Shown piece by piece: positions 4,663 through 23,813 of a stretch of 64,000 nt of DNA. The number at the start of each line of letters is the position of its first letter. The first letter of the stretch is position 1. This DNA comes from a virus. Under the pieces are notes generated by a model. It was not told the origin of the DNA, did no database searches, and was given only the letters and a program-made list of their open reading frames with translations. Both the position numbers and the translations under genes were made by a program. The stretch is from the IMG/VR virus record IMGVR_UViG_3300017917_001616, positions 10,983-74,982 of that record, one strand, 5' to 3'.

Positions 4663-5268
4663 ATGATTAAAGTCCAAGGCAAACTTCCTAGAGACGTAGT
4701 AGTTGCTTGCAGCGGCGGCGTTGATAGTATGGCTATTGTTGATTTTCTAAAAAGAAATCATCGTATTACTCTACAGTTTGTGCATCATGGCACGGAAACT
4801 AGTGAACAAGCACACCAGTTTCTAGTGCAATATGCTGCAGATAATCAACTTAAACTATACACGTCACATATCAACACTGATCTTCCTAAAGGCGTAAGTC
4901 AAGAAGAACACTGGAGAAACGAACGTTATAAAATTTTTAATGCTTGGCAGAAACCGGTTATTACTTGTCATCATTTAGATGATTGTGTAGAGACTTGGAT
5001 TTGGTCAAGTATGCACGGCGAGGGTAAAGTTATTCCCTACCAAAATGAAAATGTAATTAGGCCTTTTAGACTAAACAAAAAACATGAGTTTATCAATTGG
5101 TGTAAACGAAAAAATGTAAGTTGGATTGAAGATAAATCAAATCTTGACACATCATATATTAGAAACTATATTCGTAACAATATTGTAGAACAACTGTTAG
5201 TTATTAATCCAGGCTTACATAAAGTAATCGCAAAGAAAATTGAACAAGAACACAAAGGACACATGTAA
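4663..5268 (+). CDS. tilS: tRNA(Ile)-lysidine synthetase (minimal catalytic domain)
   Basis: PP-loop SGGVDS, HHLDDxxET, IRP, EDKSN..Y.RN.IR motifs. Confidence 0.9.
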   Translation: MIKVQGKLPRDVVVACSGGVDSMAIVDFLKRNHRITLQFVHHGTETSEQAHQFLVQYAADNQLKLYTSHINTDLPKGVSQEEHWRNERYKIFNAWQKPVITCHHLDDCVETWIWSSMHGEGKVIPYQNENVIRPFRLNKKHEFINWCKRKNVSWIEDKSNLDTSYIRNYIRNNIVEQLLVINPGLHKVIAKKIEQEHKGHM

Positions 5269-7017: not shown

Positions 7018-7202
7018 AATGGCTCAAAAAAAGATAAAAAAAGACAAAATAACAGTTGACAGGCAAGAACTCATACACTATATGTAACTAGTAAGGAACG
7101 CAGACGCAGCAACGCAGAGCTTCCAAACAAAAAAGAAAAAAGTTGTTGACAAGGCAAAAACAAGACGCTAAGTTAACAAGGTAAGCAAGAAGTTGTTTAC
7201 AC

Positions 7203-7213
7203 GCTCTTTGACA
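7203..7213 (+). promoter_or_regulatory. rrn-type boxA antitermination site
   Basis: gctctttgaca downstream of ttgaca promoters at 7056 and 7147. Confidence 0.65.
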
Positions 7214-7316
7214 ATTTAGACGTATTACGGTAAGCTATAGTAGCTTATCACATTCCTTAGCGAAAGCGATGATAGGGATTGTAAGTAGACAATGTATGCA
7301 CCAACATACATTAACT

Positions 7317-8436: not shown

Positions 8437-8606
8437 TACTTGAGTGTTAGTAAGTGAAAGGTGCAACAGTTTAGCGGCTGTTGTAACAAGGAGATATGCA
8501 ATCCTCCGAGTAACTGTAATAACGGACCCCAAGGACGCAAGTCCATAACTGCACGGCCGAAAATTTGCAGATAATGCTGTTGATGTTGTGGCAACAGGCT
8601 CAAGTA
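8437..8606 (+). ncRNA. Putative multibranched small RNA
   Basis: tacttgagt/gctcaagta closing stem with several internal hairpins. Confidence 0.4.
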
Positions 8607-8634
8607 ATAAAATAAAAAAAAGATAAAAAAAGTG

Positions 8635-8706
8635 TTGACAATGACAACAACACATACTATATTAAGAACATAAGCAGCAAACGTGTTGTTTATGCGCTCT
8701 TTGAAA
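8635..8706 (+). promoter_or_regulatory. sigma70 promoter plus boxB-like hairpin and boxA
   Basis: ttgaca..tactat, hairpin taagcagca/tgttgttta, gctctttgaaa. Confidence 0.65.
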
Positions 8707-8717
8707 ATTTGGTAAAC

Positions 8718-8902
8718 ACTGTGTTTAAAACTAACACGATACTAGATACTGTGTATAATGCACCGTTGGTTAGTGACCAGGTATTAGTAGGCTGAACAGC
8801 GTTGGGACGCAACTGTCGCAAAGACAGGAGGACTGGTTCGATTCCAGCAGTAGCAATTTACTCTCGAGGTGGGTTGCTTATTGTGTTAGTTTTAAACACA
8901 GT
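8718..8902 (+). ncRNA. Long closed-stem RNA with T-loop hairpin
   Basis: ~23-bp IR actgtgtttaaaactaacacgat / attgtgttagttttaaacacagt; ctggttcgattccag inside. Confidence 0.5.
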
Positions 8903-8907
8903 ATAAC

Positions 8908-9765
8908 ATGGGCGGTATAGCGTCCGACTTAAGGGTAAGTGCAGTAATGCACCCAAAGCAAGGTTTCCTATAAACTTGCGCTGTAGCAATACAGTCCATC
9001 TATGCAAGCCTGAACTAGAGTTGACTCGGTTATCCGAAAGCAACTCCCGTCCGTAGAAAGGCGGTAGGCAGTAAGTTAGGAATGGTGTCCGAAAGGATAG
9101 TCGCAGAGCCAGTCGGTGAGCGATAAGAGGGTTGGCGCCCAAACACCGTTCAGCCAAACTAACGAATGCTGAAAGTTAACAGGTAGCTACAGAGTCTGAG
9201 CCCGCAAGCAAAGGCATGGTAGCATCTTGAGAGTGGAAGGGTTAGGCCCCGGATACTTGAAAAGACGTTGAGTAGTCCGCAAGACGAAAGACAGTTGGTG
9301 TGTTGTATTCTGTATCTAACAAGATATGGAGCAACTGGGGCAGCACATCGAAGTAGGTTCGCAATATTGCATAACGGTAATGCAATCGTATTATCAAACG
9401 ACAGACTGTGGGTTCGATTCCCACTGTTGCACACAAAAGCGAAAGACTGTCCCGGTATACTACGAAAGGTGGTTAATGCCACACTCGAAAGAGAATGTGG
9501 TCTACAGATGCTCGCAAGGCGGACGTAGTTGTTCGGAAAGATAGCGTAACTTCTTAGCGGAAGTGAACTGCTCGCAAGGCAGGCGAAGGATAGAAGGACG
9601 AGTAGTAGTATGCGACGAGAGAAACGCCACTCTCCAAAAAAGGCACCACTGGAAGATACAGGATGACCGTAAAAGGCTCCTGTGGATAACGAGAGAACGT
9701 GGCTCGCAAGGCTAACGGTAATGCTCAAAGGCTTCCATCCTATGCTGTAATCTCAAGCTAGGCAA
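8908..9765 (+). ncRNA. GOLLD-like giant ncRNA
   Basis: ~860 nt, no credible ORF, dense GNRA-capped hairpins (gcaa, gaaa), in a phage tRNA cluster, 3' end gctgtaatctcaagc; matches my recollection of GOLLD. Confidence 0.7.
9361..9430 (+). ncRNA. tRNA-like domain embedded in the GOLLD-like RNA
   Basis: gcaata/tgttgc acceptor, D arm, 8-nt anticodon loop, gtgggttcgattcccac T arm, no CCA. Confidence 0.65.
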
Positions 9766-9769
9766 AACA

Positions 9770-9855
9770 TTACGTTTTGATGATACACATATATACTAAC
9801 AGAGGCTTAGTCCGGAGAGCGTTATGCCAAGTTTATGTGTATCTTCTAAGCGTAA
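9770..9855 (+). ncRNA. Closed-stem small RNA (family A, copy 1)
   Basis: ttacgttttgatgatacacata / tatgtgtatcttctaagcgtaa. Confidence 0.55.
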
Positions 9856-9869
9856 AATAAATACTTTAC

Positions 9870-9945
9870 GGGCTCTTAGCTCAGTTGGGAGAGCGGTAGC
9901 TTTGCAAGCTTCAGGTCAGCGGTTCGATCCCGCTAGGGTCCACCA
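9870..9945 (+). tRNA. tRNA-Ala(TGC)
   Basis: G3:U70, tttgcaa loop, CCA. Confidence 0.92.
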
Positions 9946-9952
9946 AAATAAT

Positions 9953-10027
9953 GCGGGTGTAGCTCAGGGGTAGAGCGGCTGCTTGCCAAGCACCAGGTCA
10001 CGGGTTCGAATCCCGTTACCCGCTCCA
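9953..10027 (+). tRNA. tRNA-Gly(GCC)
   Basis: cttgccaag, U73, CCA. Confidence 0.9.
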
Positions 10028-10597: not shown

Positions 10598-10987
10598 ATG
10601 AAGATATTTGAGATCACAGCAAAACTTGTAAACAAGTATTATCCAGAGCCGGATGAGACTGAAGTTGGGTCTGATGTAAAGAATGTAAGAAATGAAGTAA
10701 ATCGAGTTGTTACATTGCCAATGAATCAAATTAAGTCTAGATTCGAAGGCGACGATAAAGCAGATCCTGCGTGGACTACAGCTAGAGCAAATATCGAAAA
10801 CATTAAAAAACAAATTAAAAAAGATGTCAAACAGCTACCTCCAATAGTTGTGAGAAGGCTTCCAAGAGAAAATACGTATCAAGTAATAGATGGTCACCAT
10901 CGTTACTTTGCATTTCGTGAAATGAATATTAAACTTATACCAGCTATAATACTAAATGCTGGACAAGTTACTGGTGACAAATATTAA
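10598..10987 (+). CDS. ParB/Srx N-terminal domain protein
   Basis: PPIVV...YQVIDGHHRYFA; TATAAATA late promoter upstream. Confidence 0.8.
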   Translation: MKIFEITAKLVNKYYPEPDETEVGSDVKNVRNEVNRVVTLPMNQIKSRFEGDDKADPAWTTARANIENIKKQIKKDVKQLPPIVVRRLPRENTYQVIDGHHRYFAFREMNIKLIPAIILNAGQVTGDKY

Positions 10988-13108: not shown

Positions 13109-13735
13109 ATGGTTAAAATGACTTGTTACTCGGATGTTCCTGGATGGGGAGATTTTCCGATAGTATACCGTGATTTAGTTGCGTCACTGCCTGCTAACGC
13201 TAGTATACTTGAATTAGGTGTTGGGTTTGGACGTGGAACATGGACAATGCTCGACGCAATGACGGATACCATGTCACTTTATATAATTGATAGTTTTAAT
13301 GCAGTAGACACAGTAGATTTGTGGGAAAATTATTTCGAAACAGGTAGTCCGGTAACACTAAGTCGGGAAAATATATTAGAGTATGGAAATATGACTAAAA
13401 TATATAACCACTACGAAATCTTTTTACATAATATATGTCAACACACACGTTACTCTCAAATACAAGCAATACATGCTATATCAAGCGACGAGTATATTGC
13501 TTCGAATTTTAAGAATGATTTTGATCTTGTATTCCTAGACGGCGAGCATTCATATGAAGCTGTAAAGCAAGAACTTGAATACTTTAAAAATTCTGGCATA
13601 ATTTCTGGACATGACTACAATATTGAAACTTGGCCGGGTGTAATACAAGCGGTAACCGAATTTCTTGATAGTAACCCCGATCGGTATTTAAAAGTATACG
13701 AAGAAAATGAAGTATTTGTGATTTGCCGTCGTTAA
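13109..13735 (+). CDS. Class I SAM-dependent methyltransferase (Methyltransf_24-like)
   Basis: ILELGVGFGRGT, FDLVFLDGEHSYE, GHDY. Confidence 0.85.
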   Translation: MVKMTCYSDVPGWGDFPIVYRDLVASLPANASILELGVGFGRGTWTMLDAMTDTMSLYIIDSFNAVDTVDLWENYFETGSPVTLSRENILEYGNMTKIYNHYEIFLHNICQHTRYSQIQAIHAISSDEYIASNFKNDFDLVFLDGEHSYEAVKQELEYFKNSGIISGHDYNIETWPGVIQAVTEFLDSNPDRYLKVYEENEVFVICRR

Positions 13736-13773
13736 ACTGAATAATAAATAGTTTTAATTACGGAGATTACAAT

Positions 13774-14637
13774 ATGGTCTATCATTTAGAAAATTCTATC
13801 TGGAATAAAAAAAATCATCCAGAAGGACTTTCGCTGCCTATGATCGAAGATTTACCTAGGGTCAACTTATTATTAAAGCCTGCAATAGAAAGAAAGGCAA
13901 AAGACAAGATTGTTATTGACCTTGGGTGCGGCAGCGGATTATTGGGACTATATGCTTTTGACTACGGTGCAAAATTTGTTTATTTTGTTGAACAAGACCC
14001 TTTCATGATTGATACATTACGTAACAGTTTGCCTAAAATACTAGATCCTAACAAATTTAAAATTATTCATAAGTATGCACAAGACTTAACTTATGATGAT
14101 TTTGATTGTGGCGAACCAGAGTTATGTGTTAGTGAGTTACAAGGGCCGCAACTGTATGACGAAGGTTGCTATCAATGCACAATTCCTATACGAAGCATGT
14201 ATCAAAACTTAGTATTCATACCAGAAGTGTATCGACTCGATATCATTGAATCAGATGTAGACTATAGCAAATGGCCGTGGCCTCAAAGCGAAACACGTTT
14301 GTTAGAGCATTACAAATATATGTATTCTAAAATAGGTTGGACAAATGGGTTTATCGGATTAGACCGTCCTATCGAATTAGTAAATCCGAAAAAAATAGGT
14401 GAGCTTGTATACGACACAAGATCTGGTATTTTTAAAAACACATTTTCTACTGTTATTACTGCGCCAGAAGGCAAAATGATTAACATGTTTGGTTTTTGCC
14501 AATCTGACGAATTAGAAAATGTTACAACTAAATTTGGTTGGTATGTTTATCCCAGACAGGAACAGATGTTATTGACAGTTCATAATCCCAATACAGCTAT
14601 TGATTCTAGGATTATGTTTTCTTTAGCATTACAATGA
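13774..14637 (+). CDS. SAM-dependent methyltransferase (PrmA/PRMT-like motif I)
   Basis: VIDLGCGSGLLG..A...GAKFVYFVE, VSE. Confidence 0.75.
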   Translation: MVYHLENSIWNKKNHPEGLSLPMIEDLPRVNLLLKPAIERKAKDKIVIDLGCGSGLLGLYAFDYGAKFVYFVEQDPFMIDTLRNSLPKILDPNKFKIIHKYAQDLTYDDFDCGEPELCVSELQGPQLYDEGCYQCTIPIRSMYQNLVFIPEVYRLDIIESDVDYSKWPWPQSETRLLEHYKYMYSKIGWTNGFIGLDRPIELVNPKKIGELVYDTRSGIFKNTFSTVITAPEGKMINMFGFCQSDELENVTTKFGWYVYPRQEQMLLTVHNPNTAIDSRIMFSLALQ

Positions 14638-16981: not shown

Positions 16982-17059
16982 TCTCGCATAGGACTACTCG
17001 GTGATGGTCGCTGGCCTTTCAAGTCGGAGAAACGGGTTCGAAACCCGTATGCGGGACCA
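16982..17059 (+). tRNA. tRNA-Glu(TTC)
   Basis: ctggc-ctttcaa-gtcgg, CCA. Confidence 0.8.
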
Positions 17060-17064
17060 ATAAC

Positions 17065-17140
17065 GCTTCTAACTGTCTAATGGAAAGGCAGGCGCCCGAT
17101 AAGCGTCTAGAAGGAAGTTCGATTCTTCCTAGAAGCACCA
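17065..17140 (+). tRNA. tRNA-Ile(GAT), C33 variant
   Basis: ggcgc-ccgataa-gcgtc, CCA. Confidence 0.75.
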
Positions 17141-21388: not shown

Positions 21389-21450
21389 GTTGACATTTAT
21401 AACGTCTTACTTTAAATGTAACATGTAGACGATGAAGATGCTCTTTGACA
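21389..21450 (+). promoter_or_regulatory. sigma70 promoter plus boxA
   Basis: ttgaca at 21389, tgctctttgaca at 21439. Confidence 0.65.
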
Positions 21451-21460
21451 AATTAAACAA

Positions 21461-22427: not shown

Positions 22428-22949
22428 ATGAAAGAAGCACGTAAATACCTAGTATTTTTGGATGTTGATGGCGTGTTTACTTCGTCACGTGTTCATTATG
22501 GTCACAATGCTAGCTACGATATGTGGCACAGGTTTGATCCAGTTGCAGTAGACTTTATGAATAAGATTCATGATCGGTATCCAGTTGAGTTTGTTCTAAT
22601 GTCAACTTGGAAAAACTATATCGATGTAAAAAGTCATATGATCCAGCATTGGGTTCGTGCTGCATTTGGTAATAGCGGTTTCAGGGGGCAACTTGCAACT
22701 CCGTGGAAAACAGATCCTGACGAACTTTGGATCAACAGAAAAAACTTTGACCGAGGCGACGAAGTAAAAGAGTATTTAGATGTATACGGACAGGATGTCA
22801 ACGATTTCATCTTATTTGACGACAATGCTTATAACTTCGATAAAGCACTAGGAGTTAAGCGGCTAGTAAGAACAGATCATGAAAATGGACTGTTATACAA
22901 GCATATGCTACATGCCCAGAGTATCATGGGACAATGGCATGAACGATAG
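22428..22949 (+). CDS. HAD-family (Swiss-army-knife RNA repair type) domain protein
   Basis: FLDVDGV, STW, RGDEV, FILFDD motifs. Confidence 0.7.
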   Translation: MKEARKYLVFLDVDGVFTSSRVHYGHNASYDMWHRFDPVAVDFMNKIHDRYPVEFVLMSTWKNYIDVKSHMIQHWVRAAFGNSGFRGQLATPWKTDPDELWINRKNFDRGDEVKEYLDVYGQDVNDFILFDDNAYNFDKALGVKRLVRTDHENGLLYKHMLHAQSIMGQWHER

Positions 22950-23104: not shown

Positions 23105-23183
23105 GTCCTTGTAACGGAAATTGGTAAACCTCTTCCGTCGAGAGCGGCAGGATTTGTGGGTTCGAGTCCCACCAAGGACACCA
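23105..23183 (+). tRNA. tRNA-Leu(GAG), short variable loop, C33
   Basis: gtccttg/caaggac, ccg-tcgagag-cgg, CCA. Confidence 0.7.
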
Positions 23184-23246: not shown

Positions 23247-23813
23247 ATGACAAAAGATATTTGGGTTATTAGTGATACGCACTTTAACCACGCAAACATT
23301 CTAAAATTTACAGATAGTAACACAGGCGAATTGATTCGTGGCGCTAAATTTCAGTCAGTGACTGAAATGGACGAATATATGGTAGACCGTTGGAACAGCA
23401 CAGTAAAGCCCGGGGATAAGGTTTATCATCTAGGCGATGTTATGTTCGGAGATAAAGAGTATTTCCAAAAGCTATGGCCTAAGCTACACGGACAAAAGCG
23501 TCTTATTGTGGGAAACCATGACGACATTAAGTATCTATCTAGTGGCGGGTTCTTTGCAAAGGTTCATATGTGGCGTATGATGACTGAGTTTGGCTTGCTG
23601 CTAACACATGTTCCTGTTCATCCTAGCAACTTGCGAGTATACGCTGTAGAAGGCGAATACAACGAGGGTGATGTAGGAACAGTTCAAAAGACGTTTCTTA
23701 ATGTTCATGGACATATTCACCAAAATCCAAGCCCAGAAGGGCCATATCGCAATATGAGCGTAGAGGCCATTGATTATACTCCTGTTAACATCGAAGAACT
23801 GAGGATTAAGTAA
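23247..23813 (+). CDS. Calcineurin-like metallophosphoesterase
   Basis: SDTHF, HLGD, GNHD, HGHIH. Confidence 0.9.
   Translation: MTKDIWVISDTHFNHANILKFTDSNTGELIRGAKFQSVTEMDEYMVDRWNSTVKPGDKVYHLGDVMFGDKEYFQKLWPKLHGQKRLIVGNHDDIKYLSSGGFFAKVHMWRMMTEFGLLLTHVPVHPSNLRVYAVEGEYNEGDVGTVQKTFLNVHGHIHQNPSPEGPYRNMSVEAIDYTPVNIEELRIK

Follow-up and report, generated by a model that had tools for sequence, protein, structure and literature searches.

GOLLD RNAs are among the largest non-coding RNAs of bacteria and their phages, and the structure of the cages that they form has been solved for two members of the family, the 14-mer of env-38 (PDB 9MEE) and the 12-mer of Streptococcus agalactiae (PDB 9L0R). In the cryo-electron microscopy study of env-38, a linker that the reconstruction leaves unresolved faces the interior of the cage, and transfer RNAs (tRNAs) are reported to occupy this linker in some members of the family (Kretsch et al., bioRxiv 10.1101/2024.12.08.627333). 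In the GOLLD of Mycolicibacterium and Mycobacterium tRNA arrays, the inter-domain linker holds a tRNA-shaped element (the 'tRNA-Phe' of J13/15; a 'pseudo tRNA gene' in M. aubagnense) whose status as an ordinary expressed tRNA has been doubted (PMC6582537, PMC12990946, Kretsch et al.), and a 2026 review proposes 'inhibited storage' of the linker tRNA (PMC12990946). The existence of GOLLD RNAs with a tRNA or a pseudo-tRNA in the linker is hence already published, and the locus that we analyze here adds one more member. It lies in a 64,000-nucleotide (nt) stretch of viral DNA (hereafter, the window), corresponding to positions 10,983 to 74,982 of IMG/VR record IMGVR_UViG_3300017917_001616, and its linker carries a tRNA-like element that is quite probably a non-decoding, tethered module derived from a tRNA. 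What appears to be new in this work is the quantitative case for a module that could not be charged, and its behavior as an exchangeable cassette with a hypervariable anticodon loop. In the GOLLD literature as far as surveyed, we found no published statement of a systematic lack of CCA, of hypervariable loops or of cassette exchange.

The IMG/VR record holding the window comprises 74,982 bases with a CheckV completeness of 19%, and its source is therefore a large phage. GOLLD sequences were scored with Rfam model RF02032, which describes only the conserved 3′ domain of the RNA in 416 positions and has a gathering score of 150 bits, and tRNAs were scored with Rfam model RF00005 using a threshold of 29 bits. 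Further GOLLDs were retrieved from IMG/VR with an 18-mer of the 3′ domain and with the 3′-terminal motif, and the related loci are designated here by L-numbers. Using nhmmer, about 50 IMG/VR and roseophage GOLLDs were grouped with the window copy into a subclade. The main comparison sets 48 distinct tRNA-like elements nested in GOLLDs against 93 distinct tRNAs of the ordinary type encoded at these loci. Loci retrieved only by a second DNA pattern, GAAAGGTGNNTAATGCC, were discarded as apparent chance hits, given that none of them matched the subclade hidden Markov model and that the 20 loci checked contained no Rfam GOLLD.

The RNA and its insert comprise the following features:

8909 to 9294, + strand: GOLLD 5′ domain, conserved in this subclade and variable between subclades (RNAalifold, homology).
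9295 to 9759, + strand: conserved GOLLD 3′ domain, including the linker with the insert (Rfam RF02032, 195.4 bits).
9360 to 9432, + strand: tRNA-like cassette in the GOLLD linker (Rfam tRNA model, 43.8 bits; called 'tRNA-???' by ARAGORN), with acceptor stem 9360-9366/9425-9431, D arm 9369-9383, anticodon stem 9385-9389/9398-9402 and T arm 9408-9424.

The region spanning 8909 to 9759 is almost certainly a GOLLD RNA gene, situated within a tRNA island, and the phage that carries it is large and uncultured. It had been described as a GOLLD-like RNA in a sequence-only reading, which named the search with the Rfam GOLLD model beforehand as the check on its claim. The outcome of this search was clearly positive, with RF02032 matching positions 9295-9759 of the + strand at 195.4 bits (E = 1e-53) over model positions 1-416, without truncation. 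The 5′ domain, which the model does not cover, is kept in 20 relatives, with homology setting in at around 8889-8910, and it covaries: an RNAalifold analysis of a 21-sequence alignment of 8874-9308 yields 100 consensus pairs, of which 73 show compensatory double changes. Comparison of the relatives indicates that the conserved RNA begins at about 8909 with GGGCGG. The RNA therefore spans approximately 8909-9759, for a total of about 850 nt, a minor shift in coordinates with respect to the 8908-9765 assigned initially. The proposed absence of a credible open reading frame (ORF) also holds. The sole long frame across the region is an antisense ORF of 189 amino acids (9159-9728), rejected as coding because it is shortened to 104 amino acids in L050, a relative with 93% identity, and is not conserved. 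The dense GNRA-capped helices noted in that reading are likewise apparent: the region contains 26 pair-closed GNRA loops, more than any other sampled 858-nt window (mean 11.9, standard deviation 3.9), with a weaker enrichment if a 3-bp stem is demanded (5 vs. 2.0 ± 1.5).

The genomic context is that of a phage tRNA cluster, with 41 ARAGORN tRNA calls in the first 23 kb of the window and tRNAs flanking the RNA on both sides. The locus thus displays the attributes of the GOLLD family, namely a covariance model score extending over the whole 3′ model, a structured 5′ domain and location in a phage tRNA cluster. With the solved GOLLDs it shares the 3′-domain model, a separate multi-helix 5′ domain, the phage tRNA island and a variable inter-domain linker, and it differs from them in that its 5′ domain and the leader preceding it are specific to the subclade, its linker is filled by a tRNA-like module and its cage is predicted only by homology. 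It also differs in lineage from the GOLLDs of Mycolicibacterium and Mycobacterium, its own lineage coming from aquatic jumbo-type phages and roseophages.

The cloverleaf sits in the unpaired linker part of the RF02032 model and clearly exceeds the RF00005 threshold, retaining U8, G18-G19 and a TTCGATT T loop. Its D and T loops are canonical. The anticodon loop, ATTATCAA (9390-9397), is unpaired and 8 nt long, and ARAGORN names no anticodon for it. Six of the seven acceptor positions are paired, with a mismatch at C1·A72, and the discriminator is followed by ACA, not CCA. Compared with a canonical tRNA, the element therefore possesses the cloverleaf nucleotides and lacks both the 7-nt loop and the paired acceptor stem with CCA. 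The intact D and T arms, the 8-nt loop and the missing CCA initially described for a cloverleaf at 9361-9430 were all recovered at 9360-9432. The combination of an absent CCA, a mismatched acceptor top and an 8-nt loop indicates that the insert of the window is not a decoding tRNA. An alternative fold that breaks the cloverleaf was considered and set aside. It is just 2.2 kcal/mol better, which leaves the isolated cloverleaf as far above its minimum free energy as ordinary tRNAs are (median 2.1 kcal/mol), and the gap therefore counts neither for nor against the element. Two further candidates were rejected: gene conversion from the phage's own tRNAs, as the best identity to the 40 ordinary tRNAs of the window is about 0.67, versus 0.84 to another nested element; and a pairing, detected by eye, of the 5′ flank GTTCGC with G(C/T)GAAC in the 3′ domain, of which MD18 and MAL1 change a single side. 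As a separate observation, the 8-nt loops of the window and L050 differ in their central triplet alone, ATC in the former and GAT in the latter. The two triplets are mutual reverse complements, and the swap may reflect a small inversion within the hairpin, or chance.

A tRNA-like element is present at the same offset in nearly all of the approximately 50 subclade GOLLDs, and the nested elements as a group depart from the tRNAs that surround them. CCA is encoded by 3/48 nested elements and by 74/93 flanking tRNAs (p = 5e-18). The acceptor stem is paired at all seven positions in 7/48 and 68/93, respectively (p = 2e-11), with most nested copies pairing five or six of the seven, and the canonical Y32-U33-R37 loop is found in 21/48 versus 87/93 (p = 1e-10). 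True 6- or 8-nt loops occur in 7/48 nested elements and in 0/93 flanking tRNAs, all of which have 7-nt anticodon loops. The nominal anticodons of the nested elements correspond to Arg, Lys, Asn, Leu, Ser, Ile, Glu, Gln, Met, Trp, opal and ochre. Those of Ser or Leu type are found in elements of 71-77 nt that have no long variable arm. Moreover, among bodies that are 90-97% identical, one group combines anticodons for Ser, Glu and Arg and another those for Lys, Ile and Leu, and no single set of identity elements can therefore serve them all. The ordinary tRNAs of the phage, for their part, cover all 20 amino acids. This comparison of nested and flanking elements supports the sequence-only reading of the insert as a non-decoding mimic, and indicates that this property is a trait of the subclade, not a peculiarity of the window copy.

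Most of the fold of the nested element has nonetheless been maintained. Across 32 homologues, the D stem is paired in 99%, the anticodon stem in 94% and the T stem in 95% of cases, and both partners have changed in 12 of the 14 pairs. The arms score 0.54 for covariation, compared with 0.17 upon shuffling and at most 0.15 when partners are slid. The acceptor stem is the worst paired, at 54% of cells (alignment A2), while U8, G18-G19 and the T-loop nucleotides are retained across about 48 diverged nested copies. Continued covariation of these three stems shows that the L-shape is kept, and the aligned sequences argue that the fold of the nested element is under selection and its adaptor function is not. 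Conservation of an L-shaped fold for tRNA-binding enzymes, without decoding, is a feature of plant-virus 3′ tRNA-like structures (TLS) and of the MALAT1 mascRNA. Viral TLS are 3′-terminal and aminoacylated, and RNase P and RNase Z cut mascRNA out of its precursor, whereas the module in the window is internal and without a usable acceptor end.

The relationships among nested elements point to their exchange between GOLLDs. For 32/33 nested elements, the nearest neighbor is another nested element and not any of 115 ordinary tRNAs, and nested elements therefore form a pool of their own. In several pairs of loci, the GOLLD core is far more similar than the tRNA-like body that it hosts: over gap-free core columns, the L167/L169 pair reaches 99.5% core identity and 60% body identity (core 98.9% counting gapped columns), L006 and L033 are 98% and 76% identical (core 97%), and the window and L050 are 93% and 71% identical (core 91.7%). 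The converse is seen in L033 and L018, which carry bodies 97% identical on cores that are 70% identical. Identity falls just within the 5′ edge of the element and recovers at its 3′ end, so that the divergence is bounded by the element. The two main body types (T1 and T2, groups that were defined after inspection of the data) require four changes on the core tree, against a mean of 4.3 when shuffled, and a tree constraining one body type to group together is rejected (ΔlnL 159). Within the body, change is concentrated in the anticodon loop, which in pairs with bodies at least 85% identical, themselves not independent of one another, accumulates 0.42 differences per site, compared with about 0.1 elsewhere. 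On these data, the insert behaves as a cassette that would be exchanged between otherwise near-identical GOLLDs and whose loop is hypervariable.

Our favored explanation as a whole, which we hold with moderate confidence, is that of a GOLLD cage RNA with a tethered, non-decoding, tRNA-shaped cassette that may act as bait. By analogy with the solved homologues, the window GOLLD would assemble into an RNA-only cage with its inter-domain linker facing the interior. The GOLLD is part of a transcript full of tRNAs that need to be excised, and we infer from this context that the module is spared because it lacks CCA and has a mismatched acceptor top: decay of the acceptor end would protect it from the RNase P and 3′ processing enzymes that trim the neighboring tRNAs. 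The uncut module would then stay covalently tethered in the cage, at one copy per protomer, and could be displayed there as bait for a factor that reads tRNA shape and anticodon loop, such as a host tRNA-targeting nuclease.

The bait or decoy role is the more speculative component of this explanation, and we advance it tentatively. Rapid exchange and loop variability suggest a reader that recognizes both the shape of a tRNA and its anticodon loop. Among candidate readers, we favor a host tRNA-targeting nuclease because phage tRNAs counter defenses of this type and because the tRNA island contains TilS-like and HAD_SAK_2 genes. In two reports on such defenses, phage tRNAs are reported to counter them via changes in the anticodon loop (PMC10264068, PMC11555353). 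These defense-evading tRNAs resemble the module in having anticodon loops that deviate from those of host tRNAs and in their occurrence in tRNA-rich phage genomes, and they differ from it in being free and chargeable and in replacing cleaved host tRNAs, whereas the module in the window forms part of a much longer RNA (about 850 nt) and is apparently unchargeable. In its most elaborate form, which we regard as unlikely, the explanation would make the linker of this subclade a slot for exchangeable, non-chargeable baits, present in 10-14 copies per cage, with a loop that diversifying selection would adapt to the tRNA-targeting nuclease of the current host, or to some other factor of that host that reads anticodons.

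Several considerations weigh against this interpretation, beyond the post hoc definition of the body types and the non-independence of the close pairs given above. CCA can be added post-transcriptionally and a C1·A72 mismatch is also present in bacterial initiator tRNA, so that absence of CCA and a single mismatch do not by themselves exclude charging. Nested loops are still anticodon-like, with U33 in 28/32 and an A-rich composition at positions 37-38, which would also fit a real anticodon function. Fast change in the loop is compatible with a mere lack of constraint as well as with positive selection. No partner was found for a kissing interaction of the anticodon loop, with complementary 6-mers occurring 0.31 times per sequence in the GOLLD of origin versus 0.49 in other GOLLDs, and complementary 5-mers likewise not being more common in the former. 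Both the cage and the placement of the linker inside it derive from the solved homologues and not from the sequence of the window. Lastly, we know of no binding protein for the nested module.

Of the alternative explanations, the one that withstands the evidence best, while still unlikely, takes up the RNase P site suggested, next to a nuclease decoy, in the sequence-only reading and posits that the tRNA shape is a processing signal that recruits RNase P and RNase Z to split the two halves of the GOLLD or to free a small tRNA-like RNA, in the manner of mitochondrial tRNA punctuation or the MALAT1 mascRNA. It accounts for the fact that the best conserved parts of the element are the T arm and elbow, which RNase P recognizes, and it agrees with the probable origin of other transcript ends in tRNA processing, with the tRNAs that abut the GOLLD in relatives and with the separation in three dimensions of the two GOLLD domains in solved homologues. 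However, the helix on which RNase P would act, the acceptor stem, is the least well paired, arguing somewhat against an efficient RNase P site. The 3′ CCA, an aid to bacterial RNase P, is absent, the anticodon and D arms are strongly maintained despite being dispensable for this enzyme, and the solved full-length GOLLDs assemble as single chains.

A second alternative is that the insert is a real tRNA, stored inactive in the cage and later freed by RNase P and 3′ trimming, completed with CCA and used in translation. This would extend to the subclade the 'inhibited storage' idea published for the Mycolicibacterium GOLLD (PMC12990946; Kretsch et al.), and it draws support from the many nested loops with U33 and a purine at position 37, from the full acceptor stem and CCA of L019, L044 and L048, and from the annotation of the roseophage copies as tRNA-Arg. 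We nevertheless deem it improbable. The window copy combines an 8-nt loop with a lack of CCA next to tRNAs that encode it in 74/93 cases, and just 7/48 nested elements have a fully paired acceptor. Identical bodies bear anticodons for amino acids whose identity rules conflict, among them Ser and Leu in the absence of a long arm, the ordinary tRNA set of the phage is already complete at 20/20 amino acids, and expression of the nested pseudo-tRNA of M. aubagnense was not detected (PMC6582537).

Slightly less probable still is the notion that the element is an inert relic or spacer, derived from an ancient tRNA capture, which is decaying and provides at most linker bulk. The majority of GOLLDs sampled only by the 3′-end motif have no nested tRNA, from which it follows that the cage does not need one, and both the acceptor end and the loop look degenerate. 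Decay is difficult to reconcile with three arms that are 94-99% paired and show many compensatory changes, or with tertiary-contact nucleotides kept in about 48 copies, and repeated replacement by another intact L-shaped module is not expected of a relic. The remaining alternative, a tRNA reading quadruplets with its 8-nt loop as a +1 frameshift suppressor for a four-base codon in a phage gene, invokes the expanded anticodon loop that is the classical signature of frameshift suppressors and is found in six related copies (window, L050, L010, L031, L009 and L029), but it is very improbable given that the 8-nt loops differ among near relatives (ATTATCAA, ATTGATAA, CTTATGAA, TTTATGGA), that the same body carries a 7-nt loop in close relatives, that the acceptor and CCA defects apply equally to it and that no candidate frameshift site was seen, none having been searched for.

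A GOLLD RNA with a tethered, non-decoding module would be expressed from a transcription unit with the following additional features:

8635 to 8663, + strand: sigma-70-type promoter, TTGACA-17-TATATT, with 11/12 consensus matches.
8696 to 8707, + strand: boxA-like motif, GCTCTTTGAAAA (GCTCTTTGAMAA pattern count and recurrence in relatives).
8718 to 8902, + strand: structured leader with a closing stem of about 24 bp (8718-8741/8879-8902) and a variable interior (fold z = -4.55).
9870 to 10027, + strand: ordinary tRNA-Ala(TGC) and tRNA-Gly(GCC), both encoding CCA, 110 nt downstream of the GOLLD.

Seven copies of the promoter motif are present in the window, all of them on the + strand, where 0.11 would be expected, and the promoter region (8606-8727) is conserved in L050, L033, L010 and L031. 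The pattern GCTCTTTGAMAA is found on the + strand at 7203, 8696 and 21440 (three occurrences vs. 0.01 expected), each about 35 nt past a TTGACA promoter in the tRNA region, and boxA-like motifs also precede the GOLLD in L017, L018, L050 and L057. We take the motif at 8696-8707 to resemble the boxA antitermination signal of E. coli rrn operons and regard it as a putative antitermination element. The arrangement is that of an rrn-type boxA leader, with a boxA-like sequence soon after the promoter of a non-coding RNA operon, and an antitermination signal would suit a long, untranslated and highly folded transcript. The promoter and boxA that the sequence-only reading had placed upstream of the RNA are thus both present, but they do not lie directly ahead of the GOLLD, from which they are separated by the 185-nt leader (8718-8902). 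Three units of the window (7148-7214, 8635-8707 and 21389-21451) have one and the same layout, in which an A-rich tract precedes TTGACA and a -10 element, and GCTCTTTGA(A/C)AA follows about 35 nt further on. They look like rrn-style modules of promoter plus boxA that would drive the non-coding RNA operons of the phage.

The leader has no Rfam family match. Its interior holds a T-arm-like hairpin (8833-8847) with a TTCGATT loop. A homologue with 73% identity follows the boxA-like motif of L057, with 9/60 pairs changed on both sides, and the leader of L050 has the same stem ends and an unrelated interior. No terminator-like site was found between the GOLLD and the two downstream tRNAs, with which it probably shares a transcription unit. 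Transcription would accordingly proceed from the host-type promoter (8635-8663) through the boxA-like element, the leader and the GOLLD to tRNA-Ala and tRNA-Gly. The spacer between the GOLLD and tRNA-Ala (9782-9843) contains a 10-bp long-range stem, formed by GATACACATA and TATGTGTATC around a 42-nt interior and conserved in L050, and it may be another stem-enclosed spacer element.

Elsewhere in the tRNA island, genes at 4663-5268, 13109-14637, 22428-22949 and 23247-23813 encode a TilS-like PP-loop protein, two methyltransferase-domain proteins, a HAD_SAK_2 protein and a metallophosphoesterase. HAD_SAK_2 is a 'Swiss Army Knife' domain of RNA-repair type, and the gene set suggests functions in tRNA modification and RNA repair. 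Three tRNA calls at 16983-17137 and 23105-23180 obtain low scores on the Rfam tRNA model (41.3, 40.8 and 31.3 bits) and may represent further non-standard tRNA-like genes.

Among the relatives, the culturable roseophages MD18 (a Phaeobacter phage) and DSS3_MAL1 carry a GOLLD that had not been annotated (170 and 160 bits, respectively), with the nested element annotated as tRNA-Arg. Position 33 of this element is G rather than U and 5/7 of its acceptor positions pair, so that it is probably not a tRNA gene. In both phages the GOLLD is located directly upstream of a permuted alpha-type transfer-messenger RNA (L001, 2536-3003 and 3214-3629; L002, 2525-2988 and 3046-3462). In L045, a second, partial match to the GOLLD 3′-domain profile (1828-1957) precedes the full GOLLD of the contig by about 350 nt, and may be a partial duplication.

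The pattern observed in this subclade, in which an apparently unchargeable L-shaped mimic is swapped between near-identical GOLLDs and changes fastest in its anticodon loop, points to a partner of the cage that reads tRNA shape plus anticodon. If the proposed bait role were true, GOLLD would constitute a multivalent sponge or trap for tRNA-directed host defenses, which would be the first function for this family of RNAs.

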